Source: Candidatus Abzuiibacterium crystallinum (GTDB lineage: Bacteria > Omnitrophota > Omnitrophia > Omnitrophales > Abzuiibacteriaceae). From it: DNA of 63,283 nt. Below, in pieces: positions 17,573 through 63,283 of this stretch. The notes below the pieces were generated by a model. The model saw nothing but the letters and a program-made list of their open reading frames with translations. It made no database searches and was not told the origin of the DNA. Position 1 is the stretch's first letter, and each line of letters begins with the position of its first letter. A program made the position numbers and the translations under genes. Where the stretch lies: contig PCVY01000022.1 of the NCBI GenBank assembly GCA_002787155.1, forward strand, positions 29,336 through 92,618, in the 5' to 3' direction.

Positions 17573-17614
17573 CGTCTTTCTCTCCTTAAATCAAATTTTC
17601 TTCCGCCAAACCGC

Positions 17615-19201: not shown

Positions 19202-19375
19202 TTGACGAACGCCTCGGTTCTTAAGAGACTTGGGCAAGCTGAGGAAGCCTTGCCTTCGTCTCACCGAAGGCTACAAGCCTCTCCCGAAATGCCTGAAAGG
19301 CTGATTCTATCATGAGGAAATGCCTTGGGGAAAGGTCAAAAACACCTACTTTGGCGGCTCGGAAAAGAGGTATTC

Positions 19376-21294: not shown

Positions 21295-21318
21295 GGTTAA
21301 CCGTTCGGTTGATTAAAA

Positions 21319-22833: not shown

Positions 22834-22919
22834 TATTCCTTAAAAAAGTAGAAAGAAAAACTCTGTCATTAATTTCTTAATGTTGTCATTACATATATCG
22901 AATCAAAAAAGATTTCTCT

Positions 22920-23474: not shown

Positions 23475-23512
23475 GGCATTCTCCTTGTTAGAATTAATGA
23501 TGCTTCATTTGA

Positions 23513-24682: not shown

Positions 24683-24722
24683 GATTTAATTCCTTTGTAC
24701 CTCAAAAAAACCGGCGATCATT

Positions 24723-25184
24723 TCATAACTTCACAAAAATTTTTCCATCAACTACTCTGACTGTGTGACCAACCAAAGATTTAGGCGGCGGTCCCGAAAT
24801 CACCCTGCCTTCAACATCAAAAAACCCGGCATGACAGGGGCATTCAATGAGGCGTTTATCAGCACTCCATTCAACCAAACAACCCAAATGCGTACACACA
24901 GCCGAATAAGCCTTAAAACTCTGAGGTGTTCTTAAAAGAATCATCGGACTTTCCCCGATCGAAATCTTTTTTGCTCCCCAAACTGCAAGATCATCTTCAC
25001 GGCCCACTTCCACCATACCGCCGACAGGCCCCCTTCTTGTCACGGGCCATAAATAGGTAAGCGCCGGCAAAAACATACCCAAAAGCGTTGCCAAAAACCC
25101 GCCTTTAAGAATCCAATCTAAAAAATGACGTCTTGACGTTTCCGGCTGTTCTGCATGATTTGTTTTCATATCGGACACGGTCAC
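24723..25184 (-). CDS. Rieske [2Fe-2S] protein
   Basis: Twin-arginine-like N-terminus (TSRRHFLDW). Cluster boxes CTHLGC and CPCHAG. GTG start. Confidence 0.9.
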   Translation of the reverse strand: MTVSDMKTNHAEQPETSRRHFLDWILKGGFLATLLGMFLPALTYLWPVTRRGPVGGMVEVGREDDLAVWGAKKISIGESPMILLRTPQSFKAYSAVCTHLGCLVEWSADKRLIECPCHAGFFDVEGRVISGPPPKSLVGHTVRVVDGKIFVKL

Positions 25185-25195
25185 CTACTCCGTTC

Positions 25196-26473
25196 TTAAT
25201 CTTTTTGATTTTTTAACTGCTTATATTTTCGGTAAAGCACCAAAACCATGATCACGATAAATACCCAAATCGGAACCAGCATCCACTGTCTTTGCTTATG
25301 GCTCAGCCGCTTATGGCGTATCGAGCGTTCAATCTCATCCGTGCTTTTTACAATAGCATCATGCCGCTCCGTCAGAAAATGATTGTTCAAGGTATGCTGG
25401 ACCGACTTAATTTCGATGAGGTGCGTTTTCACTTCTTCCAAGTTAGCCGCTTCTTCCTCCACAAAAAATCCTTCGATGGCTGCCTGTTTGACCGTTCCTT
25501 TTGTTTTTTCAAACGCTTGCTCGGCGTTATTTAATTCGCGTTCGATGGCTTGGCCAAGTTGATATTCGGTTGTGCCCGTTGCGTGACAATTTAAACACGC
25601 CTTCTCGTACAACGCGGCGGTGGGATGTTGAACATCATGAAATCCGTGACAAGACGTACACTCCGAGAATTTTCCTTCCACCATGGCCGCCGCATGCGGA
25701 CTTTCCAGAAAATATTTTTTCTCATTCACATGACATTTACCGCAGGTCGCTCCCAGGTCTTTTACGCCGGGCGGCACGGCCCCATGACTGCCGTGGCAAG
25801 CCGCACAATTGGCAACCGCAAGATTTCCTTTTTCAAAAAGGGCTTTGCCGTGAACGCTTTCACGGTACTGATCAAACACATCTGTCGGATGATGATAAGG
25901 TTCCATTAAACGTTCATTGCCGTGGCAATGGTTGCAGGTTTTTGGAACGTTTGATGGGTAAACCGGGCTGTTGGGATCACTCACCGCGATCACATCGTGA
26001 TAACCGTGACAATCCATACAGGCTGCGGCTTTCATATCATGATCGACCATCACGCGTTTGCCGTGTGTGCTGGTGAGGTAGCGCGCCAATTGATCGGTTC
26101 GAATGCCATAGGGATTCATAAATTCGACATTGGCATGACAGTTACCGCAACGCTGGACAGCTTGGTCTTTTTCAGGAACACCGATGTAACCGGTTTCCGG
26201 CCCTTTCGCAAGCGCTTGATCTGCTTGCGCCGGATCTCCCCCATGACAATCTTGGCAGGCAACACCATTTCGGCTATGGATGCTTGCCTGCATTTCTTCC
26301 CAGTAATCCGAATGGCAAGCAATGCATTGATTTTCATTGTCAGTATTGGCAAATAAAGGGTGGGTGGAAAGAAAGAGAAGAATGATCAGGATGCCAAAAT
26401 AGACAAAAAAACTCCCTCTCTCATTGGTAATGAAATGAGCAGCCTGATGATTCAAATTGCGATGATGACTCAC
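25196..26473 (-). CDS. Nonahaem c-type cytochrome with N-terminal signal/anchor and C-terminal TM helix
   Basis: CIACH, CQDCH, CGNCH, CMDCH, CNHCH, CAACH, CGKCH, CTSCH, CLNCH. C-terminal WMLVPIWVFIVIMVLVLY. GTG start with GGAG 4-5 nt upstream. First gene of the co-directional cluster. Confidence 0.85.
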   Translation of the reverse strand: MSHHRNLNHQAAHFITNERGSFFVYFGILIILLFLSTHPLFANTDNENQCIACHSDYWEEMQASIHSRNGVACQDCHGGDPAQADQALAKGPETGYIGVPEKDQAVQRCGNCHANVEFMNPYGIRTDQLARYLTSTHGKRVMVDHDMKAAACMDCHGYHDVIAVSDPNSPVYPSNVPKTCNHCHGNERLMEPYHHPTDVFDQYRESVHGKALFEKGNLAVANCAACHGSHGAVPPGVKDLGATCGKCHVNEKKYFLESPHAAAMVEGKFSECTSCHGFHDVQHPTAALYEKACLNCHATGTTEYQLGQAIERELNNAEQAFEKTKGTVKQAAIEGFFVEEEAANLEEVKTHLIEIKSVQHTLNNHFLTERHDAIVKSTDEIERSIRHKRLSHKQRQWMLVPIWVFIVIMVLVLYRKYKQLKNQKD

Positions 26474-42243: not shown

Positions 42244-45200
42244 CTAAGCCCGAACGGCCAGTTCGCGGGCATTTTGGAATTGTTGGATGAGATTGGCAGC
42301 AACAACACCCAGGAAATCACGCACAAAACTTAAGACATTATCGATATAGACGATCTCATCCGCCACACGTTTCAAAAGAAAATCCATGGGTCGATCCCGT
42401 TCGCTTGCAAAAAGACGAATCGTCCCGACGCCAAGGCTTCTGAGTTCTGAGCGCGCTTCCTCATAACTCTTGGCAGTCATGATTTTGTGATCCGGAAAAT
42501 GGCCGGCAACCGCTTCGACCATCATTCGATCCGCTTGAATGGGAGTAATAATGACCAAATAGCCGGGAATGATCTTTGCCAAAGGTTCCAGTGCCAAACC
42601 AAGCGATTCACCAAACACAAGCTGGGGTGTGAAAATATTGCCTATGTTACTTTCATCGGCCGATGGGTTTAATTGAAAAACATGTGTCACGAGATCGGTT
42701 CGTGTTTCGGTTTGTGCCGTTTGCGCTTGTTGATGTAAAACATTCATGAGATCCGTCACGGCTTGCTCAGCCGGCAAAGCTGTTACCTGGCTCAGCGATA
42801 AAAAAGCTGCCGGTAATAAATTTTGAAAGTGACGTAACTCCGAACGCTTTTTCTTTTTACGCGGTTTGGGCGGCTTGCGTATTTCGGGAAAACCGATGCC
42901 GCGCGCACGTCCTATGCCGTCATTTCCAGCTGAACCAACTTGACCTGCAGCTTTTTTTTCATTCAATTTTTTTTCAATCCAGGGATCGATGCCGCTCGAC
43001 CCGGAAGACACAGCGCCTGAAGACCTGGCTGATGATGACCAAGTTCCGTAAGCCGCTTCCTTCCCCCGCGATGTGCCGCGATGTCGTTGGGTGCCCGGCT
43101 CCCACATGGTGAACTCCACAAATTCACGATCGAGGTCTATCCGTTTCACATAAACTGTTAGTTCGTAACCTGCCATCCCCTCCAACTCTCGCTCCGAACT
43201 GACAGACTTATCATCAACTAATACATTTGCGATATAAATGAATCCGCGCAGTCCCTCTGCGGTTACAACGTTTAATCCATTTCCCTTGCTGGTCACGCTT
43301 TGAACGGTTACGTTCAACGGCTGATCTTTTTGGTCTTGTAAAGCTTGAATAGCGGCCCGGCGGTCAATACTTCTGTTTTCTGCGAGCGCTTTTTGTGCCT
43401 GACTGGGATCATCTAGAAACGACAAAACCAAACTCATCTCACCGCGATAATGTTTGACGTCGATAATGGCTGCCTCAAATGTTTGGCCGATCACTTGAGA
43501 ATAGTTCTCACGGAGCGCCTTGATTATTTCCGGCCGTAAATGACTAAAAGGCACAAAACCTCGAACGCCTGCAACATCAACTTCTAATCCAGACATGGTT
43601 TCCGAGCGCTGCCTTCGCAAAAACCCAAAATCACCTCCAAAGGAGTAAGCTTCGCGTGTCACTCTGACCTGTACTTTTTGACCTTTTTTCAGACGGGCGC
43701 GTTCGCCTTCACGAATTGAAAATTTGGCTTCCTGCCCGCGGCCTCTACGTGATTCTTCTAACTCCGTAACGGTCGCCGGAAATTCCTTACCAAGCATATG
43801 TTCTTCCAAAAGCGCTAAACGTTCCCGAAGCGCTAAATTGCGCGAGTCTTCTGCTATGCCAGGCCCAAAGCGAACAGGTACAAATCCGCGAACGCCTTTG
43901 TAATCTACTTCAAAACCAACCACATTCCCTTCATTTGCCGTTTGTAATTTAATGATGACGCGTGTCACAGTGACGGGAAAAACAGGTTCTGGTTCTACAT
44001 CACCGCCGCCTATGCTTTCTCTTTCATAACGATCATCTCTCAAAGGTTCATGGCCATAACCCAAGCCCATTGAATCTTCAAAACCCAGCGGATCATCGTA
44101 GTCCCTTCTTGGTTCAAATCGGCTGAGATACCTCTCAGTCTCTCTCATAGCCAGCATGGCTTGTCGACTACGAAAAGTCTGTCCGATAGACAAAGCTTCC
44201 TCCAATTCCTGAATGGCAGCAGCGGTCACTTCCGGTGCTGGTTTTTTAACTTCAAACGGGGTCGATTGAACTCTGTCTGGTTCTTCAGCATCTAAAATTG
44301 AAAAGGTTGGCTCCAGGCCTTCGCGCCGTCTGTCCAGCGCATGAAGCGTCGCTCGAAAAGTTTTTCCCACCATTAAGTTGTTAATGAGAACAGGCCTATC
44401 GCCTTCTCCAACGACTTCGCGCAAAGCAAGTCTTAACGGCACAAAACCGCGTAAACCCTTGTAATAAACTTCCAAACCAATCGCTTTTTCTTGAGCGGGG
44501 CGATCGTAGTAGCGATACTGAGAAGGGCGTTCTGTCCTTTCATTTTTTTTGGTCATCACACGCAAAACTAAGATCTCAAAAGTTTTATTTGGGTTTTCTC
44601 GGCCCTCTTTTAATTCTTCAAGCGCCTCTTTTGATATCAGTCTTTCAGCGTCTGAGACTGAGAAAATAGGTTCCCGTACGTTCTGATTACTTGAGCCCCT
44701 ACGAAATTTCAGCTCAACCAGTTTCGCCGGGAAAAATTGATCGACCACCACCTGTTCAAGCCGTTCCGATGTCCAATCTGCCGCTCTGCCATAGAGTTTC
44801 GGCCGCTTTCCGTACGGCAAAAAACCTCTGAGACCGTTGTAAGAAACCTCAAAACCAGCGACGCGGTTGCCATCGATTCTTTTATGAACGACCATTTTGT
44901 TAATCCGGATATTGAAAATGCGCTTTGGATCTCTTTCCGCTTCTTCAAGTTCACGATAAGCTTTGGGGTGAACCGCTGTCAAAAATGGCGGGCCTTCTTC
45001 AGGCACAGCCGTCACAAAAACGTCGAGTTCGTTTTCCTCGCCAAAAATTTCTTCGGGCGCAGCCGGAAGTCCTGACCGCATGATGACACTTTCAATGCCT
45101 TTATACGAAACCGCAAGACCGTCAGCCGCACGATGCTCAGGGCTGCTGTAATATAAATCTTTTATTTTTGCCCTCAGCACAACCGGTGCGCCTGTCGCTT

Positions 45201-48200
45201 GCTCTGAAGCAAGTGCTTCTTTTAATTCTTGCATCGGATCCTTAGCAGGAACCGGCGCCTCTTCTAATTCTGTTTCGTCTTCTTCTATTCCTAATAGATT
45301 GCTTAATAAATCAATCGAACCGTATTCCATCTCGCTCAACGAACCAATATCACTGATAGTCAATAAAACCGGTCCGAGGCCATCATCCAAAACCCGCGCG
45401 CTGAGTGTTGCGAGCGGAAACAAGTAGCGGGATTCAAGCGAGTAAGAAGGGAGCGCGGCACCATATACATACCTGCCATAACTTTGGAGTTTTTTTGAAT
45501 CCATTCCGGGAAACACAAATAATGAGAGAGTTTGAGCCACCCTGTCAGGATCAAACACAGCCAATCCGATTACCTTTGCCTCTTCACCTTTGTTTTGCGA
45601 GACAATCACGTTCATTCGGTAATGACGCAGACCTTTGGGTATTCCGCCTGAAAACAATCGAGAAAGATAGGCCAACGCTCTTAAGGCATGAGGATCAGTC
45701 ATGTCCAGTGCGTATTCGTCCCACTCTCCAGAATAAGTTGTGCTTTGTGCGGTCTTTGATGCTGCTCTCAACTTAAATTCTTTCTGATCAAAAGTAGACG
45801 CTGAAGATTGTGTTGGGGTTGCCTCTTGCACTATCGGCTTGAACGCCACAAAGGTCGCTGCATTATTCTTCCGAACCTTTGTTTCTACCTGTGCAAAATG
45901 AACACGCTCTTTCAGAAGTTTTTCAGCCAATAGCTTGCCGGAACCGCGAAAGTGACGGTTGACCCAAGTCTTATAAATTTCCGGCTGACCGCTAAAATCA
46001 ATGATTTGAAATCTTTGCAACTTTTCACCGATAAACTCCTCACTCGGTAAGAAAGCCAATCCTATTACTTCAGGCGTTTTTTCAGAACCTTTTCTCTCAC
46101 CCATGATCAGAAAAAAGCTGCCGCCTGATGTATGGATCATGTCAAGCTGACTTTGCGGCGAATGGGTTTCTAACTTTTCGAGAAATCCGGAAATCGCATG
46201 TACATTTGATGAAACAGCGTCAGGAATCAATACTTCGAAAATAGATTGAAAAGGATCCGGAGGACGGCTGAGTGAATCAACATGGCGCTGATTAGTAAAA
46301 AATACCTGAAATCCGGCTTCTTTTGGTAATGTGATGGAAAGTTGATGATCACCAAAAGATTCCCCTTTGGAGACAGCATGCATTTCTGCCGATTCAATTT
46401 CAATATCAGGTTCGTTTTGAACGTTTACAAGAGGCGCCTCTTCTAGAAAAAAAGTATCGGCCCAGGCGCGTAACTGAAATTCGTTTACGAATGCTTGCAA
46501 TGGTTCAACCGGCATGTTGAGACGAAATAGGCGATACTTTTCCTGATTGGAACTTTTGATCACCAAAGCGTAGCTGGGTTCTTCGGCAGCTAGTTCTAAA
46601 ACAAATATGCCATACCCCGCGCTCCAATGGTTTCGTCCCCTTGCATCTAAGCCTGCTTTCCACAAAAGATCCGTCACGGCTTGCTCAGTAAAATGATCGC
46701 CCCATTGAATCTCATACCAATTCCATGTTTGGCCCGCTTTGTCGACTTTGGTTTTGGTTTCATCTTTCGTTAATCGGACATGCAACATACCCTGCGCAGT
46801 TTCTTCGCGGAGTTCGGAACGACGTGCCCTTTCTCCTTTTCCTCGTACTTCACCGATGGTCAGTAATATTTGCTCCTCTAAAGGACTCGCGGGATCAGGA
46901 CGGATATGCACCGTTACCAAAACGGGCCCCAGGCCTTCAACTATGATATAACCAATCGACGGCGCTCTTTCTGAGAATGACGTGTCGCTGATTTGAGCAA
47001 CTGTTTTGATATTTTGAAAAGCAGTTCTAGCTTCCGCAACGGGCGCGTGGAGATGCTGGGTCGTGGGTATTTGATCATGCAGATCTTTAGTTTGTAATTC
47101 AATGAAACCGTCCCGGTAATTAAGCTGAACTCTTACAATTTGACGCGAGTCATCCAAAATCATCGGCTTGATGACTTTCTCGAAAAATTCATGAGGCCCT
47201 TCGATTGCTGTTTCCGGCAGAGGTAACGACTCATTTCTGAGTTCGGCGCGGGTACCCGATAATGCAACATCCTCAAACTCCAATACCACAAAACGCTTGA
47301 TAAAAGCTTCTGTCAATAAGTCGATCATCAGCGTCCGGTCTTCAGGAGATAATGTGCCGGCATAATCAACCAAAGCCCATAAAACATTTTCGTCTTGAAC
47401 AGAAAGGAAACCTTTTAATTGATCGATGGTTTCACCTGTGCCGTCGTTTTGCATTGTCATTTTGATAACGGCGACCTGCCTAAGAGCATCTTCTTCCAAA
47501 CTCTCAAGCCTGGCCCGGTAAAGCGCCGCTTGCCGCATCACCCACTCAGCATCTTGATCTTCAAGTTCTTTGTGCAGCCATTCCGTGATGTTTTTTTTCC
47601 TATTTGTCTCTTGAATCATTGAATCATTTTCTGAAACATGTTTGCCGGAGCGCGGGTCGAAATAAAAAACGATAAAGCCGGCCGTTCGATAGGCATAAAC
47701 TTCTGCTAAAAGATCAATCGCCACTATGCGATCCACGGTGCTCAATCTGCCAAGGCGCGAGAAAATGATAAACTTGCGGTAATCAAACTCTGAAATATAC
47801 GAATTATTATTCAGATCATTCAAGACAGAGTTGATTTCGCCCAACAACGCATCGTTGTCCATGCGCTTTAATTCTGCAATATAGTCATTAATAGACTGAA
47901 GGGTAGACGGTAACTTTCCTGCAGGTATTCTTTCTGCGATGCGGCGTAAAACAATATCACGCGTCCGCTCGAGATGAATATCAAGAACACCTGAGTCATG
48001 AGGTGATACAACTTGAGATACTGCTAAGGAAGTCCTAAGTTCTGATTTCATCTCTCCAGATGCAGACAATTCATTTAACCGGAGAATTTGATCGGGCGCC
48101 AAAAGGTTGCCGGTTTTCTTGATTTCTAAGAAAGACATGGGTTCCTTTTCCAAAGCATCGAGAACAGAGGGAACATCCGAATAGGTGAAAGCGGTCGAAA

Positions 48201-48303
48201 CAGAAAATGAAAACAACACGGAAAAAGCGGCTGTTTTCAGCGCTAAACAATGGAGTGGTTTTCGGTGGTGAAGTGGCTGCACGGTCTTATTTAACTTTGC
48301 CAA
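42244..48303 (-). CDS. Giant (2019 aa) hypothetical protein: unknown N-terminal ~1000 aa, six S1-like OB-fold repeats, a basic/Ser-rich linker, and a C-terminal module shared with the other giant ORF
   Basis: Uninterrupted 6.06-kb ORF. The repeated block [VI]xGxEVxYxGxRGFxP…G[KQ]xFxAxxxxxx resembles ribosomal protein S1 domains. The start is uncertain: TTG at 48303, or GTG 6 codons later; there is no nearby ATG. A hydrophobic segment lies near the N-terminus. Confidence 0.85.
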   Translation of the reverse strand: MAKLNKTVQPLHHRKPLHCLALKTAAFSVLFSFSVSTAFTYSDVPSVLDALEKEPMSFLEIKKTGNLLAPDQILRLNELSASGEMKSELRTSLAVSQVVSPHDSGVLDIHLERTRDIVLRRIAERIPAGKLPSTLQSINDYIAELKRMDNDALLGEINSVLNDLNNNSYISEFDYRKFIIFSRLGRLSTVDRIVAIDLLAEVYAYRTAGFIVFYFDPRSGKHVSENDSMIQETNRKKNITEWLHKELEDQDAEWVMRQAALYRARLESLEEDALRQVAVIKMTMQNDGTGETIDQLKGFLSVQDENVLWALVDYAGTLSPEDRTLMIDLLTEAFIKRFVVLEFEDVALSGTRAELRNESLPLPETAIEGPHEFFEKVIKPMILDDSRQIVRVQLNYRDGFIELQTKDLHDQIPTTQHLHAPVAEARTAFQNIKTVAQISDTSFSERAPSIGYIIVEGLGPVLVTVHIRPDPASPLEEQILLTIGEVRGKGERARRSELREETAQGMLHVRLTKDETKTKVDKAGQTWNWYEIQWGDHFTEQAVTDLLWKAGLDARGRNHWSAGYGIFVLELAAEEPSYALVIKSSNQEKYRLFRLNMPVEPLQAFVNEFQLRAWADTFFLEEAPLVNVQNEPDIEIESAEMHAVSKGESFGDHQLSITLPKEAGFQVFFTNQRHVDSLSRPPDPFQSIFEVLIPDAVSSNVHAISGFLEKLETHSPQSQLDMIHTSGGSFFLIMGERKGSEKTPEVIGLAFLPSEEFIGEKLQRFQIIDFSGQPEIYKTWVNRHFRGSGKLLAEKLLKERVHFAQVETKVRKNNAATFVAFKPIVQEATPTQSSASTFDQKEFKLRAASKTAQSTTYSGEWDEYALDMTDPHALRALAYLSRLFSGGIPKGLRHYRMNVIVSQNKGEEAKVIGLAVFDPDRVAQTLSLFVFPGMDSKKLQSYGRYVYGAALPSYSLESRYLFPLATLSARVLDDGLGPVLLTISDIGSLSEMEYGSIDLLSNLLGIEEDETELEEAPVPAKDPMQELKEALASEQATGAPVVLRAKIKDLYYSSPEHRAADGLAVSYKGIESVIMRSGLPAAPEEIFGEENELDVFVTAVPEEGPPFLTAVHPKAYRELEEAERDPKRIFNIRINKMVVHKRIDGNRVAGFEVSYNGLRGFLPYGKRPKLYGRAADWTSERLEQVVVDQFFPAKLVELKFRRGSSNQNVREPIFSVSDAERLISKEALEELKEGRENPNKTFEILVLRVMTKKNERTERPSQYRYYDRPAQEKAIGLEVYYKGLRGFVPLRLALREVVGEGDRPVLINNLMVGKTFRATLHALDRRREGLEPTFSILDAEEPDRVQSTPFEVKKPAPEVTAAAIQELEEALSIGQTFRSRQAMLAMRETERYLSRFEPRRDYDDPLGFEDSMGLGYGHEPLRDDRYERESIGGGDVEPEPVFPVTVTRVIIKLQTANEGNVVGFEVDYKGVRGFVPVRFGPGIAEDSRNLALRERLALLEEHMLGKEFPATVTELEESRRGRGQEAKFSIREGERARLKKGQKVQVRVTREAYSFGGDFGFLRRQRSETMSGLEVDVAGVRGFVPFSHLRPEIIKALRENYSQVIGQTFEAAIIDVKHYRGEMSLVLSFLDDPSQAQKALAENRSIDRRAAIQALQDQKDQPLNVTVQSVTSKGNGLNVVTAEGLRGFIYIANVLVDDKSVSSERELEGMAGYELTVYVKRIDLDREFVEFTMWEPGTQRHRGTSRGKEAAYGTWSSSARSSGAVSSGSSGIDPWIEKKLNEKKAAGQVGSAGNDGIGRARGIGFPEIRKPPKPRKKKKRSELRHFQNLLPAAFLSLSQVTALPAEQAVTDLMNVLHQQAQTAQTETRTDLVTHVFQLNPSADESNIGNIFTPQLVFGESLGLALEPLAKIIPGYLVIITPIQADRMMVEAVAGHFPDHKIMTAKSYEEARSELRSLGVGTIRLFASERDRPMDFLLKRVADEIVYIDNVLSFVRDFLGVVAANLIQQFQNARELAVRA

Positions 48304-48514
48304 AGATTGAATCTTTAAAACAAAAACCTCCCTTAAAAAAATAAGCGCTTAGCGAAATTGTAGAACGATCACACTTCAATATATACGGGAAAGGCGTAAT
48401 GGTGATTGTACCTTATAAGATGAATTTGATCAACATTTTAGGGTATTAATATTTAATAATAGGAATACAATAGTACTAAATAGTACTATGCATGATTGTA
48501 TAGAAGGTTTTTGA

Positions 48515-49630
48515 TTAAAAGAACTTTTTAACCAACCCCACAATAAACTGCTGTTGAGACACACTCAGATAGGGATGGATGGGAAGGTGTAAAATACGCT
48601 CACAAACTTTTTCCACTTCGGGGAGATCCCCTTCGTGATACCCCAAGTGTTTAAGACAAGGCTGTAAATGAAGCGGCGTGGGATAATAAACATTGGCCGG
48701 CACGTGGTGCTTGCGAAGGTACCTCAATAACGCATCACGGCGGTCAGTTAAGATAGGATACTGATGAAAAACATGATCTGTTTTACAATACCGTGCGGGC
48801 ACTTCAATGCTGCCGTTGACACCGGATTGCTCAAGCAAGTGATTATATTGTTTTGCCACCGCACGCCGCTTGCTGTTCCAATGTGACAAGCGCTTGATTT
48901 TGACATTTAAAATGGCAGCCTGCAATTCATCTAATCTAGAGTTGAGCCCGATTTTTTCGTGATGATAAGGCGTATTCCCGGTTCCCTGATTGCGCAAACT
49001 CCGAAGCAAAGTATTTAATTTGGCTTGGTCAGTCGTAATCATGCCGCCGTCTCCAAAAGCGCCCAGCGTTTTGGTCGGATAAAAACTAAATGCACCCAAC
49101 TGGCCAAAACTCCCCGTCATCCTGCCTTTCCATTTGGCACCAGTGCTTTGGGCACAGTCTTCAATCACAGTAAGTCCGTGCTTTTGCGCCAATTTGCCAA
49201 TCACGGTCATGTCTGCCGGCGATCCATACAAGTGAACGGGCAAAATAGCTTTCGTTTTCTGCGTGATGGCACCTTCGATTTTGGCGGGATCAATTTGAAA
49301 AGTACGGGGATCAATATCAACAAAAACAGGACGAGCACCCACCCGCACAATGGCTGCCGGTGTTGCAATGAACGAGAGGGGTGTGGTAATTACTTCGTCC
49401 CCTTTGCCAATACCAAGGGCCATGAGACTTAAGAGTAAAGCGTCCGAACCGGATGCCACGGCAACGGCGAATTGTGTGCCAATGAGTCGGGCAAAACTTG
49501 ATTCCAGACTCATGACTTCACGGTCTAGAATAAAACGACCGCTTTTAAGGACGCGGGCAAGCCTTGTTTGAATGCCGCTTTTGATTTCTTTATACTCAGC
49601 CGCCAAATCAACGGGAACAATCTTTTTCAT
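48515..49630 (-). CDS. DegT/DnrJ/EryC1/StrS-family PLP-dependent aminotransferase (sugar aminotransferase type)
   Basis: Family blocks GDEVITTPLSFIAT, FSFYPTKTLGAFGDGG (PLP Lys) and NSRLDELQAAIL. ATG at 49630 overlaps the stop of the upstream gene (ATGA). Confidence 0.9.
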   Translation of the reverse strand: MKKIVPVDLAAEYKEIKSGIQTRLARVLKSGRFILDREVMSLESSFARLIGTQFAVAVASGSDALLLSLMALGIGKGDEVITTPLSFIATPAAIVRVGARPVFVDIDPRTFQIDPAKIEGAITQKTKAILPVHLYGSPADMTVIGKLAQKHGLTVIEDCAQSTGAKWKGRMTGSFGQLGAFSFYPTKTLGAFGDGGMITTDQAKLNTLLRSLRNQGTGNTPYHHEKIGLNSRLDELQAAILNVKIKRLSHWNSKRRAVAKQYNHLLEQSGVNGSIEVPARYCKTDHVFHQYPILTDRRDALLRYLRKHHVPANVYYPTPLHLQPCLKHLGYHEGDLPEVEKVCERILHLPIHPYLSVSQQQFIVGLVKKFF

Positions 49631-49989
49631 AACCACATTCTAATGGCGACAATCACCAGAAAAACAGCAAATATTTTTTTAAGTAAAACGGTATCCATTC
49701 CAACAGACATCTGAGCGCCGATAAAGCCGCCAATCACGGCAAACAGCACCGCACTTAAAAGCACGCGCCAATCGATAAACCCGTAGAGCTCATGCTTCCA
49801 TGCGCCGACAAATGCGGTGGGTATGATAATGGCCAAACTGGTGCCGACAGCGTGATGCATATCGAGTTTTAACACATAGTGAAAAAGCGGTACAAAAATA
49901 AGCCCGCCCCCGACGCCCAAAAGTGCACTCACAATCCCGCCGAACAAACTAATGACAATGGTTAATGCAATAATAACCGGGCCTGTCAT
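49627..49989 (-). CDS. Half-size TauE/SafE (TSUP) family membrane protein
   Basis: 120 aa, four TM helices, GGIVSALLGVGGGLIFVP motif. There is no room for a second half on either side. Confidence 0.7.
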   Translation of the reverse strand: MTGPVIIALTIVISLFGGIVSALLGVGGGLIFVPLFHYVLKLDMHHAVGTSLAIIIPTAFVGAWKHELYGFIDWRVLLSAVLFAVIGGFIGAQMSVGMDTVLLKKIFAVFLVIVAIRMWL

Positions 49990-55555: not shown

Positions 55556-58500
55556 TTAAGCGGCGATTGCAACCTGAACTCTATTCTTCAGATCGTTTAC
55601 CAATTCACGCGCTAATCCAATCACGCTCAAGAAACGCTCAACACCATCCACCACGCGCAAGGTTGCATCCATCGTCAATTTCTCCAACACATACCGGCCA
55701 TAAAGGCGGTCGGCCGGAAGCGCGATTACCTGGGCACTCGAAGCACGTAATTCGCTTCGGAGGATATGATTTAAATCAGCAATAGAACGCGCCACGCGAA
55801 CACGCTTTGCTGGCGGCATATCTGCCATCAGTGCTTGTACCTGAATGGCTTCTGCTTCGTTACCTACTAATGCAACTAAGGGATGTTCGTCAGCGATTGC
55901 TTGAGCCACCGGGAGCAAGGTAGCGCCTAATTCGCGGTTAAATTCGGGTAAAAACACCAAAGCTTCACGGCTGGTCACATTTTCAGTCAGTGCCGATTCC
56001 GCCGCAGAAGACCCGTTGACATTTTGACCGGAAATGACATTTGCAGCATCCGGTGATTGGCTGCCGGCAGCGACGCTAAGCGCAGCCAAGATGATTTGTG
56101 TTTTACTTTTCAAATCAAGCGCCGCAACTGCGTGTTTAACTGCTTCTGCGCTTTGTAAAATATTTCTTAATGTACGCGGCGCATAAGCGCTTTTTACGTC
56201 CAATGTTTCAAAATCAAGACGCAGCTCTGAACGTTCCCGAGGTGCCGACTTCTCAGTTTGCGCATTTTGCTGCAGCAGCGGCTCATAAAGTGTCTCGGGT
56301 TGTTTTGGTTTTAAAACCAATTGACTGGCTAGAGCTTCTAGACGAGAAGCTATGTGATCTAAATCCTGTAACCCGGGTTCTATCACTCGAATACCATGTG
56401 CAATTTTGGTGTGTAAAATAATTTGACCTATTTCGCCAAAAAGCTTGTTGAACCGTTCTAACCGGTCATCCCCCGCATTGATAAAATTGACGAGGATTTG
56501 TGCCGCATCAAAATGCGACCTAAGTTCACGCAATGAACGGCCTTTCGGCATTTCAAATTGCCGTTCAATCGAGTCAAGTGCTGCCAAGCCTTGGCTTAAA
56601 ATAAGATCAACTTGATCAACAGTTTCGGTCTTCACTTCAAGCGATTGCACAAATTGAATAATTTGTTCGACTGACTTGGATGCCCTTTGAATTGGCGTGC
56701 GAACACTTTCAATGCCGGTCAAATGCGGTAACTGTAAACGAATCTCTTGTAAGACTCTCGACAGCGTATGCAAATCTTTAACTGTAATCAATTCGTCGGA
56801 ATCTTTGCCGACCGCACGGATAATGAGATGAATAGCCTGATCCAAATGGCGAATCACTGGTTTTAAGGACCGATTGGCCGGCAACGCTTGTTTTGTTTGG
56901 GCCTCTTCCAGCAATACTTTAATCAAAGCCAGCTTGGCTTTCACAAAATTAAGCGTGGCAATCGATGGACGTGCCTTGGGTCTCGTAACCGATGTTTCCG
57001 GTTGTGTTTCTATTTGAGTACGTAATTCCGCTTTCGGACTTTCTTGCGCCAAAATAGCTTCCCCTTCTAGCACGATTTCCCCAGAATCTGGTTGATCTCC
57101 ATCTTCTTCCAGCACCACTTTAAAAATACCGGATGCTGCGTTGACGGGTGCCGCTACCAAATGAAAATCTCCAAAGAACGACCCTTGTAAAAAACGGAAA
57201 TTAGATTCGCCTGAACGCTTAATCCGAGGCAGAACATCTTGCAAATGAGAAATCAATTGATCAGAAACCGCTTGGTCTGATGCGCCGCGAAAAGCGCCGC
57301 GGTTAATAAAATTGATCCGGAGTTTCACCGCACCGTTCGGAATGCTGAGACGGTCTAATTCGGCAAATACCGATTCCACGGTCGGAAAATGCAAAAGAAT
57401 ATTTCTTTTAAGCCGCTCACTTTGCCATTTGTCGACGGACTCTTGACGGTCTTCCCACGGCAGCCACATCTCATACAAAGACTTTGTCTCAAGCGGATTA
57501 ATTTGAGGTTCGTCAGGCACCAAAGTGCGCCGCACGTGGATAAGAAGCGCGGCTGTCAAACCTGCTAACAAGCGATTGGTTTTCTCATCCTGGCTCTGTG
57601 TACCGAATGCTACTTTCGGAGACGTGTTCGATTGCCCCCAAAAGATTTCTCCCACCGGGGTGATTAAATGATAAACACCCTCTTCGTTCACCAGCGTATA
57701 GGTCGTTGGTATTGCCTGACCAAGACCGGCATTGTAATTTTCCCAATTTTCAAAGTAAGTAAAATCTCCGCGGCCGGTAAAATAATTAATCATGCGATCA
57801 CGCATGGTGTCCATTACAAGTGTTTTGGCATCATCCGACATCGGCATGCGCTGCTCTTTCAATTGAAAGTAAGGAATGATCCCTTCATCGGTCTTCAGAT
57901 GTGTAAGATATTCTGCGTAAGACCAGTTTTGCAAATGTTTCTTCTTGATAGCCGCAAAAACCTGCAGCCAATAAAATGCAAAGTCTAAGGCATCGTCAAA
58001 AGAATTAATGAAAAGATGAAGCGAATATTCAAATTGAACCAAATTAAAACCCGGATATTTTGCCTGGAAATCTTGGACGCTCTTCACACCTTCTTTTTCG
58101 GCTAAACCCCGCATGATTAAATCCATGGTTGCCTTTACTTTAGAATGGCCTTTGGGATGAACGCCTGAGAGGCCCCCGAAATGGGCAATGGCTTGCCCCA
58201 TCCCGGCATTCATGCGCGCATCACGATAGAAAATCTTACTGAAGTCGCCATACGGATCGAGTGTTAATTTATATTCGATAATCGGATAAGACATATCATC
58301 GCCTAAATAGAGTTCACCTGCCTGCAAGAGACTGACGCGGTCCACATCTAAATCGAAATTAAGAATCAAAAGGTCAGGATGATTGCGGGAATAGTCAACA
58401 ATGTTCGCATCCGGATGCGAAAGTGCTTTGGCATCCTTGCGGGACGGGTCCGCAAGTCCCTGACGCGCCCAAGGATCTCCCTGACTTTTTAGGAGTGTGA

Positions 58501-61500
58501 TATCTGGACCAAAAAGTTCTCTGAAAAATTCAACGTATTCGGCGGCAGAACCGGCATTTAAATTAAAGGCAACTTTCATATGGGAAACTTTGAGCGTTTG
58601 TGCCAGATTGCCATATTTTGCTCTCAAAGAATCAAGGTACATTTGGCGGGCACGATCTCTCGTCGTTTGCGAATCATCTAACGATCCTTCTTGATCGGCT
58701 TTTTCATACTCGGCGGATAAAATCTGAGCTTTCACTGCTTGCAGCATTTCCCCGTAAAGCGTGATACCACCGATATTTGGTTTCGCACCATTGGTACCGA
58801 CTTCCACATGGCTCCGGGTCACATAAAGACCGCCCTGCGCCCCTAGATTGCCGATACTCTTGTAAAGTTCGCCGGACACCGCCACACCAAGATCAATCAC
58901 ATTCACACCCGTGTCACGTAAACCTGCAATCAAAGCCGCTTTAAACGATTGGGTTGAAGGACCGTTGTCACCGGCAATTACAAAGGTATCGCCTGTTTTT
59001 AACCCAACTTTTTGATCGTGACGGCGTGAATAGAATTCAACGGTTCCAAGCGCGCGGCCTATCCAACGCAGAAGGGTTTCATCCACTTCTTGCGGGAAAT
59101 TTTGATCATCGGCACCGTCAAAACCTCTGAAATCGTATTCTTTGACAAATTTATTTAAGATTTGCTCCAAACTTTTACCGTGCTTGGACTGCCACGTCAA
59201 AATGCTTTCGTCTTTGACCACGGCGCGCAATTCTGATCGTGAGGTTGGAGAGTTCACTGAAAGATCTAACAAATCATGGATGACGATAAACTGATCCAAC
59301 TCTGTCACAGCTCGATCCAACAATTCAAGCTGCACAAGTTCTGCCGCTGTATGAGGAACGCGGCTATGATTTTCACGAATGCTTTTCAATGTTCCTTGAA
59401 CAGCATTAATGGTCCCCACTAATTCTTCAAAGTTTTGCCGCTCCACGATGGATATTCGATCGCGTCTTTTGGCAGCACCGTCACGCGATTGCCTGATGAG
59501 TTGATTGGTATCCACGGTTGAAGTCGTGCGAATGCTCAGCCACTTTTGTATCCATTCCTTAAAATCAGAAGAAGGCTGACTAGCAGGACTTGAAAATAAC
59601 CGGATAATCTCTAAAGAGAGTAAGCGAAGTCGGTTATGTTTAGCCATTAAGCCAAGAAAGATACGGTCAATCACAATGGTTTCAGAATCTGCTTGTGAAA
59701 TTGGTGAGGTTGCTCCTGCGGCAACTTCGGTCGTTTTAATATTCTGAAGTTCCGAGGGGATATTTTCTAAATGACCATTGCTAACTGATCGGCGGCTGGC
59801 AATTCTTAATGCCTGCTGATAGAAGCTCGGCAATGCTGCGACAGCTTCTTCAATTAATTTGTCTTTGGCATTTGGGATTTGTTCTACGTCCAGATTTGAT
59901 TTGGCTAGTCTCAAACCCTTGCCATAAATTTGTATCGTTTTCTCAATGCCGTTTAAGAATGCTTGGTATGATTTCTTCTTGGGGTGATTCTTTGGTAAGG
60001 TACTGACAAATTGTTTCCACCGAACTAATAATTGAAGCCGGCGTTGAATCTCCTGCTGGGCTGGTCGAACGCCCACTTCTTCAACTAAACTTTGGACATC
60101 TTCCGGTGTCATCGAAAGACCCTTTGCCTTCAAGAGAGCTGCTTCTGCTTTAGCGAAAGGCGTGTCTCCACTCACATATTTTTCGTGCCATTCTCGAATA
60201 CGCTGATTGGTCACGCGATCCGCCGCCGCTGAGGTGGGAATATTTTCCTTAACGGACATCTCCAGAATTTCATGAACGGTATCACCGATTTGTGCGATCT
60301 TTTCATCAAGTGTCAGTCCTTTTGTGTCATCTTTTAACAGATCCCATCCGGCCGCAATCAGTCCGCCTGCATTTAAAATGTAATCCGGAACATATAAAAT
60401 ATTTTCTTGGTGAAGCCGGTCGCCGTCCGCTTCTCTAGCCAGCTGATTATTAGCAGCACCGGCAATCAACTGAAATCCGGCTGCTTTTAAACGGGGAATC
60501 GTTTTTTCATTCAAAATAGCGCCGACAGCATTAGGACTAAAAACTTCGGCTTCTTTCACATCGTAAACATCATCCGGATGATTCAAAATGACAAGTCTGC
60601 CTGCTGCAATCTCTGGAGCATATTTTTTTCTGAGCTGTTCAAGCAAAGCTTGATTCACGTCCGCGAGATAAACTTTCTTCGCGCGCTCACCTAAGTCATC
60701 ACTACGCATCCATTTTTCAAGCAATTCACCCCCTACGCTGCCCGCACCCTGACTGGCAATGGTGATATTTTGCAAACCGCCGGTTCCAAACTTTTGGCGC
60801 ACACCGCCGCGAATACCGGCCATCACACCTCTAGCCGTATAAGCTGCGGGGATTCTGCCGCCATGATCAATTAATTCATCCCCGGTTCCGACCATCGTCC
60901 AAGGGGCTACAGCAGCCATGGCTGCTACATCTTGATCCGAAGTATTCATGTCAACAGCAGTCAAAATAATTTGCAATTGATTAAGCGCGCGCGCCACATA
61001 CTGTTGGATACGCTGCTTTCGTTCTTTGTTAGCGGGATCTTTCGGGTCAAAGCCTGCTTGGATCACGACTTTACCGCCCGCCCATTCCACGCCTGAGCCG
61101 GCTGACTTATGTCCCATACCTTCGCCTAAGCGCTCATTATCGATTAAAGCATCTACTGGGGTTGGGTAATTTTTAATCCGTGTACCGCCCAAAGCCCAGC
61201 TGCCGTGAAAAGCCTTTCGAAACGCATCAATGAACGCCCATTCTTCTGTCATACCTTCGGCTTCTACTACTTCCTGACGTGCTTGCCAAACGCCATACGC
61301 CAATTTAAATTGCGCGATCGACGGATGAGCGATCGAGGGATAAAGACTCACATATGCTTTCGTATCCGTTTCAAACGGAACGGGGATTTCGTAGAGCGCC
61401 ACATGATCATGCCAATATTCACGTGCCGGCGGCGGCAAAAGTTCTTTAATAGTATATTTTAAAACTTCCGCATCCGGCATCCCGGCAATGTGAACTTCAT

Positions 61501-63232
61501 ATAAACCCGGTGTGTCGGTTTCAATTTCATCAACACCTGATTTAGAAGCGCGAAGTTCCGATTGAACGCCTGCGCGTACTGATGTGTCTAATGCTGACAA
61601 TTCTGTAATTGGCAGGCCATTTTGCCCCTCAAACTCATTCAGCGCTCCTAAAGCTTGTTGGGCCTCTAGACGGCGCGCTTCAATGTCATCACCATTATGA
61701 AAATCTCCGTCCCGCCGTTCAAAACGAATCGCGTTAAGTGCCCGCTGTGCGTTTTGGGCAGCTTGGAGCAAAGGCAGCCGTTTGGTTTCAAGGGATGCTT
61801 TCATGCTTAATGCAACTTGTTTTAAGAAAAGCGCAGCCCGCTTTAACTCAATTTGATCAGGCCGTTCGAGGGAAATCGTGAATCCCGCCCGACGCAAGGC
61901 GTCTTGAAACATGAGTTCGCGCTGGTGACCGTCAAAAAACTTTTCCCGAGTGATTTCGCCGCGTTTAAATTCCGGAATCCGTGACTCAATTTGGTGAGGG
62001 ATAAAACCAAGCCTTAAATATTCGTTGGCCGCTTCGGCAACTTTTGAATCAGAAATGCCCGTATAGCCAATGAGCAAAATCGTTCTTCCGATAAATAATT
62101 CCTCTTTTGGAAACTCCTCGCGCGCCGCTTGAAGACCTTCGAGTGCAAGCGTATTTAAGAAACGGAGCGTGACGAGCATGCGGTTTCCAATACGCTCTCC
62201 GACAGAGCGCTTTAAGTACGCCGCATTGGTTTGTTGAGGTGTAAAACCGCTCAGCCATTCGGTGAATTGCTCAAGCGTGAATTTATCTCTCAGAGATTCC
62301 GGCGTCAGGCCGTAGAGTGTATGCCAATTCATGTGCTTGTCTGCCAAATTCAGGCGCAAAAAATCAGCGATTTGTCTTAATTCTTCGGTCGTGAGAATGT
62401 TCGCTAATTGAGTAGGGTTCAACTCGGCAGGGGTCAGGGATCGGGGATCAGCCCTTCGACTATGCTCAGGACTGATGCTGAGCGAAGTCGAAGCATCAGA
62501 AATTAATTGTTTTTCCTGTTCCCTGTCCCCCGACACCTGTTCCCTTTTTTGCCGCAGCTCAGAGTGGGACTTGAGATCGAAAATCTGCGTTAGCGCTTGA
62601 CGTGTCACTGCAAACATCCTTTGATAAGGTTGTTCGCGCGTTTGTTTTGCACTTTGGGCGAGTGCTTTATTTAAAACGTGTTTTTGATCGACGGCCAGTG
62701 AACCGCTCCTGCGCAAAATTCGGATTTGTTCCAAGGCAGCCATACTGGCATTTGCGTTCAAATCTTTGACAGCAGGCGGCGCATTGAGTTCAAGAATAGC
62801 CTCGCTGCCAAATCTGGCTATCAGCTTATCTTGTTGAATAAGTCCCGTTAATTGACGAACCGCTTCTTCCCGCACTACTCTCATGTGAACCGCTTGAAGA
62901 AAAACGCTTAAACCTCTATCAGAAATAGTGGTCAAATTCATTTTTTTCGGTAAATCGGGTACCGTTTTTGTTTGATTGTCTACAACCTGAGAACGTCTAA
63001 AAGAAGTGCCTTCGATAACGTGGTAAGGATTCGGATGCCGCCACAACTCTTGGACTAATAATAAGGCTTCACGCCTGACCAGCTTAGATTGATCAGTGCC
63101 GCTTAGCTGCCAGATAGATTGATTCGGGTCTGCAAGCCATTTAGCGGTTTCAATGATCGGTTTGATCCGAGGGTCATTTTCAATATCCTTTGTTCCTGCT
63201 ATCCAATCCCGTAAACGTGTTGTTGCAATCAA
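55556..63232 (-). CDS. Giant (at least 2558 aa) hypothetical multidomain protein: Leu/Phe/Val-dehydrogenase-like domain, phosphohexomutase-like domain, long helical regions, and a C-terminal module shared with the 2019-aa ORF; 5' end probably outside the window
   Basis: Uninterrupted 7.7-kb ORF. The track start is a TTG without an SD, and my reading finds no in-frame stop between it and the right window edge. The first ATG is ~98 codons in. Domain motifs are given in the findings. Confidence 0.85.
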   Translation of the reverse strand: MIATTRLRDWIAGTKDIENDPRIKPIIETAKWLADPNQSIWQLSGTDQSKLVRREALLLVQELWRHPNPYHVIEGTSFRRSQVVDNQTKTVPDLPKKMNLTTISDRGLSVFLQAVHMRVVREEAVRQLTGLIQQDKLIARFGSEAILELNAPPAVKDLNANASMAALEQIRILRRSGSLAVDQKHVLNKALAQSAKQTREQPYQRMFAVTRQALTQIFDLKSHSELRQKREQVSGDREQEKQLISDASTSLSISPEHSRRADPRSLTPAELNPTQLANILTTEELRQIADFLRLNLADKHMNWHTLYGLTPESLRDKFTLEQFTEWLSGFTPQQTNAAYLKRSVGERIGNRMLVTLRFLNTLALEGLQAAREEFPKEELFIGRTILLIGYTGISDSKVAEAANEYLRLGFIPHQIESRIPEFKRGEITREKFFDGHQRELMFQDALRRAGFTISLERPDQIELKRAALFLKQVALSMKASLETKRLPLLQAAQNAQRALNAIRFERRDGDFHNGDDIEARRLEAQQALGALNEFEGQNGLPITELSALDTSVRAGVQSELRASKSGVDEIETDTPGLYEVHIAGMPDAEVLKYTIKELLPPPAREYWHDHVALYEIPVPFETDTKAYVSLYPSIAHPSIAQFKLAYGVWQARQEVVEAEGMTEEWAFIDAFRKAFHGSWALGGTRIKNYPTPVDALIDNERLGEGMGHKSAGSGVEWAGGKVVIQAGFDPKDPANKERKQRIQQYVARALNQLQIILTAVDMNTSDQDVAAMAAVAPWTMVGTGDELIDHGGRIPAAYTARGVMAGIRGGVRQKFGTGGLQNITIASQGAGSVGGELLEKWMRSDDLGERAKKVYLADVNQALLEQLRKKYAPEIAAGRLVILNHPDDVYDVKEAEVFSPNAVGAILNEKTIPRLKAAGFQLIAGAANNQLAREADGDRLHQENILYVPDYILNAGGLIAAGWDLLKDDTKGLTLDEKIAQIGDTVHEILEMSVKENIPTSAAADRVTNQRIREWHEKYVSGDTPFAKAEAALLKAKGLSMTPEDVQSLVEEVGVRPAQQEIQRRLQLLVRWKQFVSTLPKNHPKKKSYQAFLNGIEKTIQIYGKGLRLAKSNLDVEQIPNAKDKLIEEAVAALPSFYQQALRIASRRSVSNGHLENIPSELQNIKTTEVAAGATSPISQADSETIVIDRIFLGLMAKHNRLRLLSLEIIRLFSSPASQPSSDFKEWIQKWLSIRTTSTVDTNQLIRQSRDGAAKRRDRISIVERQNFEELVGTINAVQGTLKSIRENHSRVPHTAAELVQLELLDRAVTELDQFIVIHDLLDLSVNSPTSRSELRAVVKDESILTWQSKHGKSLEQILNKFVKEYDFRGFDGADDQNFPQEVDETLLRWIGRALGTVEFYSRRHDQKVGLKTGDTFVIAGDNGPSTQSFKAALIAGLRDTGVNVIDLGVAVSGELYKSIGNLGAQGGLYVTRSHVEVGTNGAKPNIGGITLYGEMLQAVKAQILSAEYEKADQEGSLDDSQTTRDRARQMYLDSLRAKYGNLAQTLKVSHMKVAFNLNAGSAAEYVEFFRELFGPDITLLKSQGDPWARQGLADPSRKDAKALSHPDANIVDYSRNHPDLLILNFDLDVDRVSLLQAGELYLGDDMSYPIIEYKLTLDPYGDFSKIFYRDARMNAGMGQAIAHFGGLSGVHPKGHSKVKATMDLIMRGLAEKEGVKSVQDFQAKYPGFNLVQFEYSLHLFINSFDDALDFAFYWLQVFAAIKKKHLQNWSYAEYLTHLKTDEGIIPYFQLKEQRMPMSDDAKTLVMDTMRDRMINYFTGRGDFTYFENWENYNAGLGQAIPTTYTLVNEEGVYHLITPVGEIFWGQSNTSPKVAFGTQSQDEKTNRLLAGLTAALLIHVRRTLVPDEPQINPLETKSLYEMWLPWEDRQESVDKWQSERLKRNILLHFPTVESVFAELDRLSIPNGAVKLRINFINRGAFRGASDQAVSDQLISHLQDVLPRIKRSGESNFRFLQGSFFGDFHLVAAPVNAASGIFKVVLEEDGDQPDSGEIVLEGEAILAQESPKAELRTQIETQPETSVTRPKARPSIATLNFVKAKLALIKVLLEEAQTKQALPANRSLKPVIRHLDQAIHLIIRAVGKDSDELITVKDLHTLSRVLQEIRLQLPHLTGIESVRTPIQRASKSVEQIIQFVQSLEVKTETVDQVDLILSQGLAALDSIERQFEMPKGRSLRELRSHFDAAQILVNFINAGDDRLERFNKLFGEIGQIILHTKIAHGIRVIEPGLQDLDHIASRLEALASQLVLKPKQPETLYEPLLQQNAQTEKSAPRERSELRLDFETLDVKSAYAPRTLRNILQSAEAVKHAVAALDLKSKTQIILAALSVAAGSQSPDAANVISGQNVNGSSAAESALTENVTSREALVFLPEFNRELGATLLPVAQAIADEHPLVALVGNEAEAIQVQALMADMPPAKRVRVARSIADLNHILRSELRASSAQVIALPADRLYGRYVLEKLTMDATLRVVDGVERFLSVIGLARELVNDLKNRVQVAIAA

Positions 63233-63283
63233 TGATTGTAAAATGTGAATAACGGTTTCGCTTTCTGTCCAGGCTCCGCCTTC

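Follow-up and report, generated by a model that had tools for sequence, protein, structure and literature searches.

The Omnitrophota are abundant, uncultured nanobacteria whose giant proteins are for the most part impossible to annotate. In a catalogue of Omnitrophota long proteins, 94% carry transmembrane (TM) helices or a signal peptide, 80% are sequence singletons and the architectures are mosaic (10.64898/2026.06.07.730766), and such proteins are suspected of attaching to other cells or attacking them (10.1101/2023.11.21.568195). The published sets are limited to proteins of at least 10,000 amino acids (Nielsen & Lui, 10.64898/2026.06.07.730766) or to open reading frames (ORFs) of more than 20 kb (Seymour et al., PMC10066038). 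Here we describe a smaller protein from the same phylum, encoded by a 2019-codon ORF within 63,283 nucleotides (the window; positions 29,336 to 92,618 of contig PCVY01000022.1, GCA_002787155.1) of Candidatus Abzuiibacterium crystallinum, together with a second giant encoded in the same window; the pairing of the two, and the class features that it reveals, are what is new here. The design is one of conserved ends (an upstream element, a leader, a first SELR motif and a tail module) around a middle private to the gene, made up of about 950 residues with no detectable relative followed by six diverged S1-type OB folds. The reading that we favour, tentatively and at a little short of an even chance, is that the protein would be an exported, fast-evolving mosaic of the Omnitrophota long-protein kind. 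As for the host, CG12_big_fil_rev_8_21_14_0_65_45_16 is entered as 'Abzuiibacterium crystallinum' (Omnitrophia, Omnitrophales), a 2.5-Mb genome from Crystal Geyser groundwater, in the supplementary data of Seymour et al. (PMC10066038), and the nearest relatives of the cytochrome b encoded downstream of the ORF are Candidatus Omnitrophota metagenome-assembled genomes (MAGs).

An earlier note on this DNA, made from the letters alone, had described an uninterrupted 6.06-kb ORF with an unassigned and internally repetitive N-terminal half, a hydrophobic stretch near the N-terminus, an S1-domain array, a Ser/Gly/Lys/Arg-rich linker and a shared C-terminal module. The ORF proved to be a genuine gene. 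All 2019 codons are open, the remaining five frames contain 81–130 stops each, and the probability of such a run arising by chance was estimated from base composition at ~1e-51. The GC content by codon position (0.57/0.39/0.42, versus 0.52/0.39/0.46 in 23 other genes of the window) showed its pattern in both halves of the ORF, and synonymous codon usage was within the range of the same 23 genes. No break of the frame was seen in three independent assemblies: the DNA was base-identical in a JGI metagenome contig, in a Logan assembly of a sequencing run and in an NCBI MAG contig (PFGO01000007.1 of GCA_002781965.1), which excludes an assembly artefact, and no population variation was present among these three assemblies. 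It is highly improbable that the ORF is not one functional gene, whether through chimeric assembly, through the fusion of separate genes or as a pseudogene in decay whose frame happens to be open still. There is no orthologue to confirm the architecture, and the locus differs between genomes, as such an origin would have it; against this stand the identical assemblies, the chance estimate, the coding signature and native codon usage of both halves, and motifs that are kept as peptides through synonymous changes (see below). The gene is species-restricted, and orthologues are lacking.

The gene is one of a pair with the second giant, a paralogue (ORF at 55556-63232) that is open to the window end. 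In the NCBI contig, where the second giant spans L086:6835-17719, the window end coincides with a scaffold gap of 49 N (L086:9951 to 10001); a 1039-residue open frame lies past the gap, with no stop before it, and a Logan contig lengthens the near side by SELRGLMSGEGG, also without a stop. Because the frames on both sides of the gap are open, the second giant very probably forms a single ORF, with a length of 3.6 thousand residues or more. It encodes amino-acid-dehydrogenase-like (ScyB-type model, 4.6e-50) and phosphoglucomutase-like domains, a signal-peptide-like leader, five hydrophobic TM-like segments and at least 17 ELR motifs, and contains no cysteine. An all-against-all comparison of tiles from the two proteins returned a sole common block, the C-terminal module of ~200 residues, which has ~30% identity to the product of 55559-56251 with a Smith–Waterman z score of 10 (7 with SELR masked), in agreement with the sharing described earlier. 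The module itself has no PDB or Pfam match. Homologous tails were sought by Smith–Waterman and hhalign at the C-termini of two large ORFs from other Omnitrophota genomes (loci L002 and L006, described below), and this candidate relationship was rejected, as none was found.

The N-termini of the two proteins are also alike, reading MHSKLFSKQLRFIALFTALAFTSTSTIA-YSDVP in the second giant and ...HHRKPLHCLALKTAAFSVLFSFSVSTAFT-YSDVP in the 2019-residue protein. The leader of the latter aligned with the second-giant N-terminus MHSKLFSKQLRFIALFTALAFTSTSTIAYSDVP at z 5.0, the top score among all tile pairs, and a six-frame search of ~72 kb returned the pentapeptide YSDVP nowhere except at these N-termini. 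The hydrophobic stretch that had been pointed out as a possible signal peptide or anchor is present at residues 17–39, and that interpretation is backed by the alignable leader at the start of the neighbouring giant. By eye it can be divided into an n-region (HHRK), an h-region (AAFSVLFSFSV) and a c-region (S-T-A|F), and other exported proteins of the window carry similar leaders, e.g. ...FCTTAFS|QG. The first SELR motif then follows at residue 87 here and at residue 85 in the second giant. The DNA upstream of the genes is also alike. The window holds just two copies of the palindromic octamer TAGTACTA (0.05 expected per 63 kb), which stand in tandem ahead of the ORF; a third copy lies at L086:6711-6718, 117 nt upstream of the second-giant start. 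A 20-nt block around the octamer, ATAG(T/A)ACTATTTAGTACTAT, and a GTACAAT box resembling a -10 element are likewise conserved between the two upstream regions. As a candidate operator, the octamer may be bound by a regulator that the two genes have in common.

The shared leader bears directly on the translation start. Three gene callers gave three starts, namely TTG1 (2019 residues), GTG 48282 at codon 8 (2012 residues) and ATG 48138 at codon 56 (1964 residues; the NCBI/UniRef version). Both options named in the earlier note, TTG 48303 and GTG 48282, stood; its statement that no ATG lies near the start has to be read beside the in-frame ATG at codon 56, which NCBI uses. A start at ATG56 probably removes the leader, and a leader that is shared and ends in YSDVP argues against ATG56 and backs the TTG/GTG start. 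A strong AGGGAGG box (48321-48332, minus strand) is located 23 nt from the TTG, beyond the normal Shine–Dalgarno distance, and an out-of-frame mini-ORF, TTG-TTT-TAA, begins 3 nt after this box.

For the SELR motif, a six-frame translation of the window was searched with [SA]ELR. All 11 occurrences fell within the two giants, with five here and six in the second giant versus 0.2 expected in each (Poisson P 3e-6 and 1e-7). The upstream 1039 residues of the second giant contain ten more ELR sites, and one further SELR-type site stands at the edge of the scaffold gap. Across 25 sites, Arg was present at -2 in 17 and Ser at -1 in 16; the consensus is R-S-E-L-R, with a small or polar residue next to it on the C-terminal side. 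Two other Omnitrophota genomes also carry the motif in large ORFs, at L002 and, as KSELRAQRSELRK, at L006. The latter (L006:1-1656, MAG HK-STAS-OMNI-5) is a partial large ORF in which tandem KSELRAQRSELRK lies ~290 residues before the C-terminus; it contains no cysteine and is directly upstream of a hexapeptide-transferase gene. An explanation of SELR as a DNA-level repeat was rejected, since the codons differ at every site; because they vary from site to site, selection acts on the peptide. Literature searches for SELR and RSELR returned nothing relevant, and RSELR, cysteine avoidance and conserved ends are all unmentioned in Seymour 2023, West-Roberts 2023 and Nielsen & Lui 2026.

Several SELR sites lie just outside recognizable domain borders or just before hydrophobic segments, which raises the alternative that [R]SELR marks cleavage of a polyprotein into an N-terminal fragment, orphan modules, the S1 array and the C-terminal module. 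This alternative is compatible with export, and we consider it quite unlikely. A motif that is strongly enriched, conserved as a peptide and specific to the giants would suit it, as would its placement, which in the second giant is 16–19 residues before the phosphoglucomutase-like domain, in the L002 protein 3 residues after the NagB-like domain and in the present protein directly after the low-complexity linker (residue 1821). Cleavage of Omnitrophota giants, at points that are unknown, has been raised by West-Roberts et al. (10.1101/2023.11.21.568195). Three observations oppose it: no protease was identified in the ORF or the window; a conserved site (residue 1952, aligned with that of the partner) falls inside the shared C-terminal module, between predicted strands; and the flanks of the sites do not significantly exceed background in hydrophilicity or in likeness to linkers (P 0.09, a trend).

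Cysteine avoidance provides a further feature common to the SELR-bearing proteins. The 2019-residue protein contains one cysteine, C19, which lies within the leader, and the other SELR ORFs, of 2558, 1039, 2272 and 551 residues, contain none. By comparison, the mean cysteine content of the 26 other ORFs in the window is 1.1%, and that of its cytoplasmic enzymes 1–2.5%. The isoelectric point (pI) is 5.7, similar to those of the signal-peptide proteins of the window, while most of the cytoplasmic enzymes there have a pI of 9–10. An extracytoplasmic destination is considered the most likely because the leader is conserved in the paralogue, cysteine is absent and the pI is acidic; TTG1 or GTG8 is favoured over ATG56 for the same three reasons.

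Between these ends, the N-terminal half of the protein remained without assignment, as had been claimed. Searches of the Pfam, NCBIfam, PADLOC, PHROGs and PDB sequence collections, made with the whole protein and with pieces of 300–430 residues, left residues 1–1030 without a match; the defence-system (PADLOC) and phage (PHROGs) libraries did not match any part of the protein. When residues 1–1030 were compared exhaustively by phmmer with 1.84 billion cluster representatives, the sole match was a self-match, so no well-known family was matched by the profile libraries, PDB or phmmer. A GNAT acetyltransferase identity for residues ~700-800 and ~870-960 (motif WVNRHFRGSGKLLAEKLL) was rejected: Pfam gave no match even at E 10, a profile of the two segments against PDB gave only insignificant Rab GTPase matches, and the segment pair scored z 1.9. 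The internal repetitiveness of this half was not supported as first illustrated. Neither of the two duplications first quoted could be retained, since GLGPVL is a six-residue identity that does not extend (z 3.6, matched by 4 of 500 shuffles) and VIGLA a five-residue identity that does not extend either (z 1.9). A different duplication, of two helical segments, gave a Smith–Waterman score of 57 (z 5.2), which was reached in 1 of 1000 shuffles.

The claimed S1 array was borne out as six diverged repeats spanning residues 1041–1733, followed by the linker ending in PKPRKKKKR in front of the C-terminal module. The repeats were first detected by self-BLAST within the window, and their boundaries were then set with a hidden Markov model of the repeats, which align on G-[FL]-E-V-x-Y-x-G-[LV]-R-G-F-[VL]-P. 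A six-repeat profile matched PDB chains of bS1 with E values from 7e-7 to 4e-4, the strongest similarity falling on GIRAFLPGS of domain 2, and NCBIfam rpsA models matched over the repeat 5 region (PRK06676, 5.8e-12; TIGR00717, 1.9e-9). The Pfam S1 model (PF00575) gave 21.1 bits for the best single repeat versus a gathering threshold of 22, and no match with the whole protein. Based on these profile comparisons, membership of the six repeats in the S1-type OB fold is well supported. No DNA-level tandem repeats were found within the ORF, from which it follows that the duplication of the repeats is old. Identity with housekeeping bS1 was rejected, both by score, at 36.6 bits with TIGR00717 (cut-off 577) and 45.3 bits with PRK06676 (cut-off 368), and by size, since bS1 has ~350–600 residues and consists essentially of 4–6 S1 domains, while the array occupies only residues 1041–1733 of 2019. 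The exhaustive phmmer search covered residues 1–1030, and the C-terminal half was covered by word-index searches and the profile libraries. Word-index searches with the C-terminal module alignment and with the C-terminal half found nothing; as they missed even the parent protein they are uninformative, and do not amount to an absence of homologues.

Taken together, the favoured reading would run as follows. Translation would start at TTG 48303 or GTG 48282, and a Sec-type signal peptide or signal anchor would move the protein across, or anchor it in, the cytoplasmic membrane, with the first SELR ~45–55 residues past the leader and YSDVP. Outside the cytoplasm, the OB-fold array may serve as a module that binds or spaces a polymer, with single-stranded nucleic acid as the default, and [R]SELR and the common C-terminal module may be recognition elements for shared handling, whether processing, sorting or assembly. 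Single-stranded nucleic acid is the default ligand of S1 folds generally; the best-matching type of bS1 domain, domain 2, is the protein-binding one.

A number of observations weigh against export and shared handling, and several of them are what the chief competing explanation would predict. In that explanation the protein would be a cytoplasmic RNA- or ribosome-binding scaffold translated from ATG56, whose S1 folds bind mRNA or the ribosome in the manner of bS1 and whose orphan half has some other activity, the likeness of the leaders being fortuitous or a relic. Classically, S1 domains bind RNA in the cytoplasm, and bS1 is the best match of the array; the content of charged residues, 27%, is high and cytoplasm-like; there is no TM segment past residue 40; a weak purine-rich box, AAGGAA, precedes ATG56, where the NCBI annotation starts the gene; and the enzyme domains of the partner giant are of classically cytoplasmic types. 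Further points count against export or handling more generally. The leader has a borderline Kyte–Doolittle hydropathy (1.56), a long n-region and a Lys within its hydrophobic core, and its alignment to the partner is short for all its z of 5. No secretion genes were found in the window. Counting of TM segments would place the tail module in the cytoplasm in the second giant and outside here, a count that the scaffold gap makes unsafe. The two SELR observations given above, on flanks and on the site within the shared module, apply here as well. Structure prediction, proposed earlier as a check, was run with AlphaFold2 and gave no usable fold: residues 1–1030 in single-sequence mode reached a pLDDT of 34.6, too low for fold comparison, and the C-terminal module, with a two-sequence alignment, an unusable 43.4. 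A cytoplasmic scaffold nevertheless fails to account for a leader and YSDVP kept at the paralogue N-terminus with the first SELR at matching distance, leaves ~8.4 thousand residues of cysteine-free SELR proteins unexplained in a genome whose cytoplasmic enzymes contain 1–2.5% cysteine, and has to accommodate repeats that are far under the rpsA cut-offs and carry long insertions. We regard it as unlikely, if worth keeping in view.

The exported mosaic of the favoured reading would be fast-evolving, and comparison with related genomes was used to examine the locus. A homology search with the whole protein gave a self-match only, and tblastn found no trace of the protein in 80 related loci, while conserved neighbouring genes have 65–77% DNA identity to the nearest other Omnitrophota genomes. 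Scans of GTDB genomes and JGI metagenomes with the protein and the module alignment gave no match; the species' own representative was seemingly masked or absent there. As noted earlier, the ORF is co-directional with a downstream respiratory cluster (HEAT/Rieske/cytochrome b/multihaem/COX), with a gap of 201 nt to the HEAT gene start at 42042. Inspection of orthologues and gene neighbourhoods, which the earlier note had recommended, found no orthologue, and the content of this slot differs among relatives. At L002 the position directly upstream of HEAT/Rieske/cytochrome b is filled by a non-homologous, cysteine-free giant ORF of >2300 residues with NagB-like, GlpX-like and TraB-like domains and RSELR/TELR sites, and at L003 and L006 it holds the ResB/CcsA genes for cytochrome c assembly. 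A functional tie between the giant and the respiratory cluster was rejected on these grounds; because the adjacency is not conserved, it gives no functional clue. Judged from these comparisons, the locus turns over rapidly between genomes.

Several further observations were made at these loci. The L002 giant (L002:1-7681, MAG nzgw330) is cut by an N-run with duplicated flanks, a scaffolding artefact, and is open to the start of the locus, hence longer than the listed 2306 residues. ResB/CcsA are found here ~30 kb away (window 7593-12332), adjoining an IS110-family transposase (11298-12332), and this displacement suggests a rearrangement in this lineage. Dense multihaem cytochromes (Paired_CXXCH, NapC/NirT-type and c554-type), a second cytochrome b and a sigma-54 two-component pair occupy window 15193-26473 (minus strand); the 'respiratory supercluster' of the earlier note thus extends beyond the haem-copper oxidase to electron-transfer modules of the metal- or nitrogen-oxide type. 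A 120-residue ORF at 49627-49989 (minus strand) matches only the first 107 of 237 positions of the TauE/SafE profile and is probably a truncated remnant or split gene. The 701-residue product of the ORF at 13076-15181 (minus strand) has a clear signal peptide, lacks cysteine and matches nothing in Pfam; it is another exported orphan. Rfam and tRNA scans of the window gave no match. The coordinates of the features described are collected in Table 1.

Table 1. Positions of the 2019-codon ORF, its parts and associated elements in the 63,283-nucleotide window
Feature	Position	Strand	Details
Giant ORF	42244..48303	-	2019 codons from TTG 48303; stop 42244-42246
Candidate sigma-70-like promoter, TTGATC-17-TACAAT	48405..48433	-	from consensus scan; total count not above shuffles
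Palindromic octamer TAGTACTA, two copies 10 bp apart	48471..48488	.	~170 nt upstream of start; candidate operator
Signal-peptide-like leader LHCLALKTAAFSVLFSFSVSTAFT and YSDVP	48169..48255	-	leader residues 17-40; YSDVP 41-45
SELR motif 1 (KSELR)	48034..48045	-	residues 87-90
Orphan region, mixed helical and alpha/beta	45214..48138	-	residues 56-1030; no assignable family
Internal duplication, two helical segments	47269..47886	-	residues ~140-216 and ~261-345; ..LS.xDRxxxIDLLxExxxxR..F.V..F
AELR motif	47236..47247	-	residues 353-356
SELR motif (RRSELR)	46807..46818	-	residues 496-499
S1-like OB repeat 1	44953..45183	-	residues 1041-1117; most degenerate
S1-like OB repeat 2	44641..44925	-	residues 1127-1221
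S1-like OB repeat 3	44281..44589	-	residues 1239-1341
S1-like OB repeat 4	43696..43986	-	residues 1440-1536; preceded by 98-residue acidic/Arg-rich spacer
S1-like OB repeat 5	43399..43677	-	residues 1543-1635; PF00575 E 4e-4
S1-like OB repeat 6	43105..43320	-	residues 1662-1733
Ser/Gly-rich low-complexity linker ending in polybasic PPKPRKKKKR	42844..43071	-	residues 1745-1820
C-terminal module	42247..42843	-	residues 1821-2019; starts with RSELR; alpha/beta-looking; common to second giant
RSELR within C-terminal module	42439-42450	-	67 residues before protein end
Second giant (paralogue partner)	55556..63283	-	open to window end, continues past scaffold gap; at least 3.6 thousand residues

An extension of the favoured reading, which is speculative and on balance improbable, is that Omnitrophales large proteins may share a chassis, composed of a co-regulated promoter with the TAGTACTA operator, a Sec leader followed by YSDVP, cysteine-free sequence and a common tail, with arbitrary cargo in between, and that [R]SELR may be a dedicated processing or sorting signal. 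Should this be true, the motif would provide the first sequence handle on where Omnitrophota giants are cut or recognized. If the features generalize, they would supply rules for recognizing the class, candidate processing sites and units for structure prediction. A gene of two thousand codons with a partner of at least 3.6 thousand residues is a tractable size for the study of Omnitrophota giants, and the 1000-residue N-terminal half is a clean case of sequence with no relative in a very large protein set.

Among known systems, ribosomal protein bS1 resembles the present protein in having six tandem S1-type OB folds and provides the best profile matches, especially over the domain-2 motif G-[IV]-R-[AG]-F-[LV]-P. 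It differs in that the present protein carries a leader peptide, a 1030-residue N-terminal extension, long insertions and a 98-residue spacer within the array and an additional tail module, and is free of cysteine, with scores of 37–45 bits versus cut-offs of 368–577. Rrp5 is also a large protein in which a tandem S1 array is joined to a non-S1 region, and the S1_RRP5 model (PF23459) gave a weak match, at 13–15 bits versus a threshold of 27, with no homology outside the S1 fold. Rrp5 is, moreover, a eukaryotic nucleolar protein with 12 S1 domains plus HAT repeats and another order of parts. Type I secretion substrates are an example of large, cysteine-free exoproteins that are exported unfolded, without an N-terminal Sec leader. 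The likeness lies in large, acidic, cysteine-free proteins with a C-terminal region common to otherwise different members; unlike the RTX substrates of this system, the present protein has no GGxGxD, and no ATP-binding cassette (ABC) or membrane fusion protein (MFP) genes are found by the giants in the window or L086. A Sec-type leader and a shared C-terminal module of ~200 residues that looks folded also set it apart.

A further comparison is with the described Omnitrophota giants. At 2019 residues and 6.06 kb the present protein is under the catalogue size limits, and it has no TM helix past its leader and no SecA, C39, dockerin or carbohydrate-active enzyme (CAZyme) content; secretion and pilus genes are absent from its flanks, and the domain modules reported for the giants include no S1 array. 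In common with them, it belongs to the same phylum, is mosaic and, as most of them are, unique in sequence, with long domain-free stretches at a variable locus. Signal peptides or TM helices are usual in the giants, and here a signal-peptide-like leader of borderline hydropathy is conserved with the paralogue. The phosphoglucomutase-type content of that partner matches the 'multi-enzyme metabolic' class described for Omnitrophota giants.

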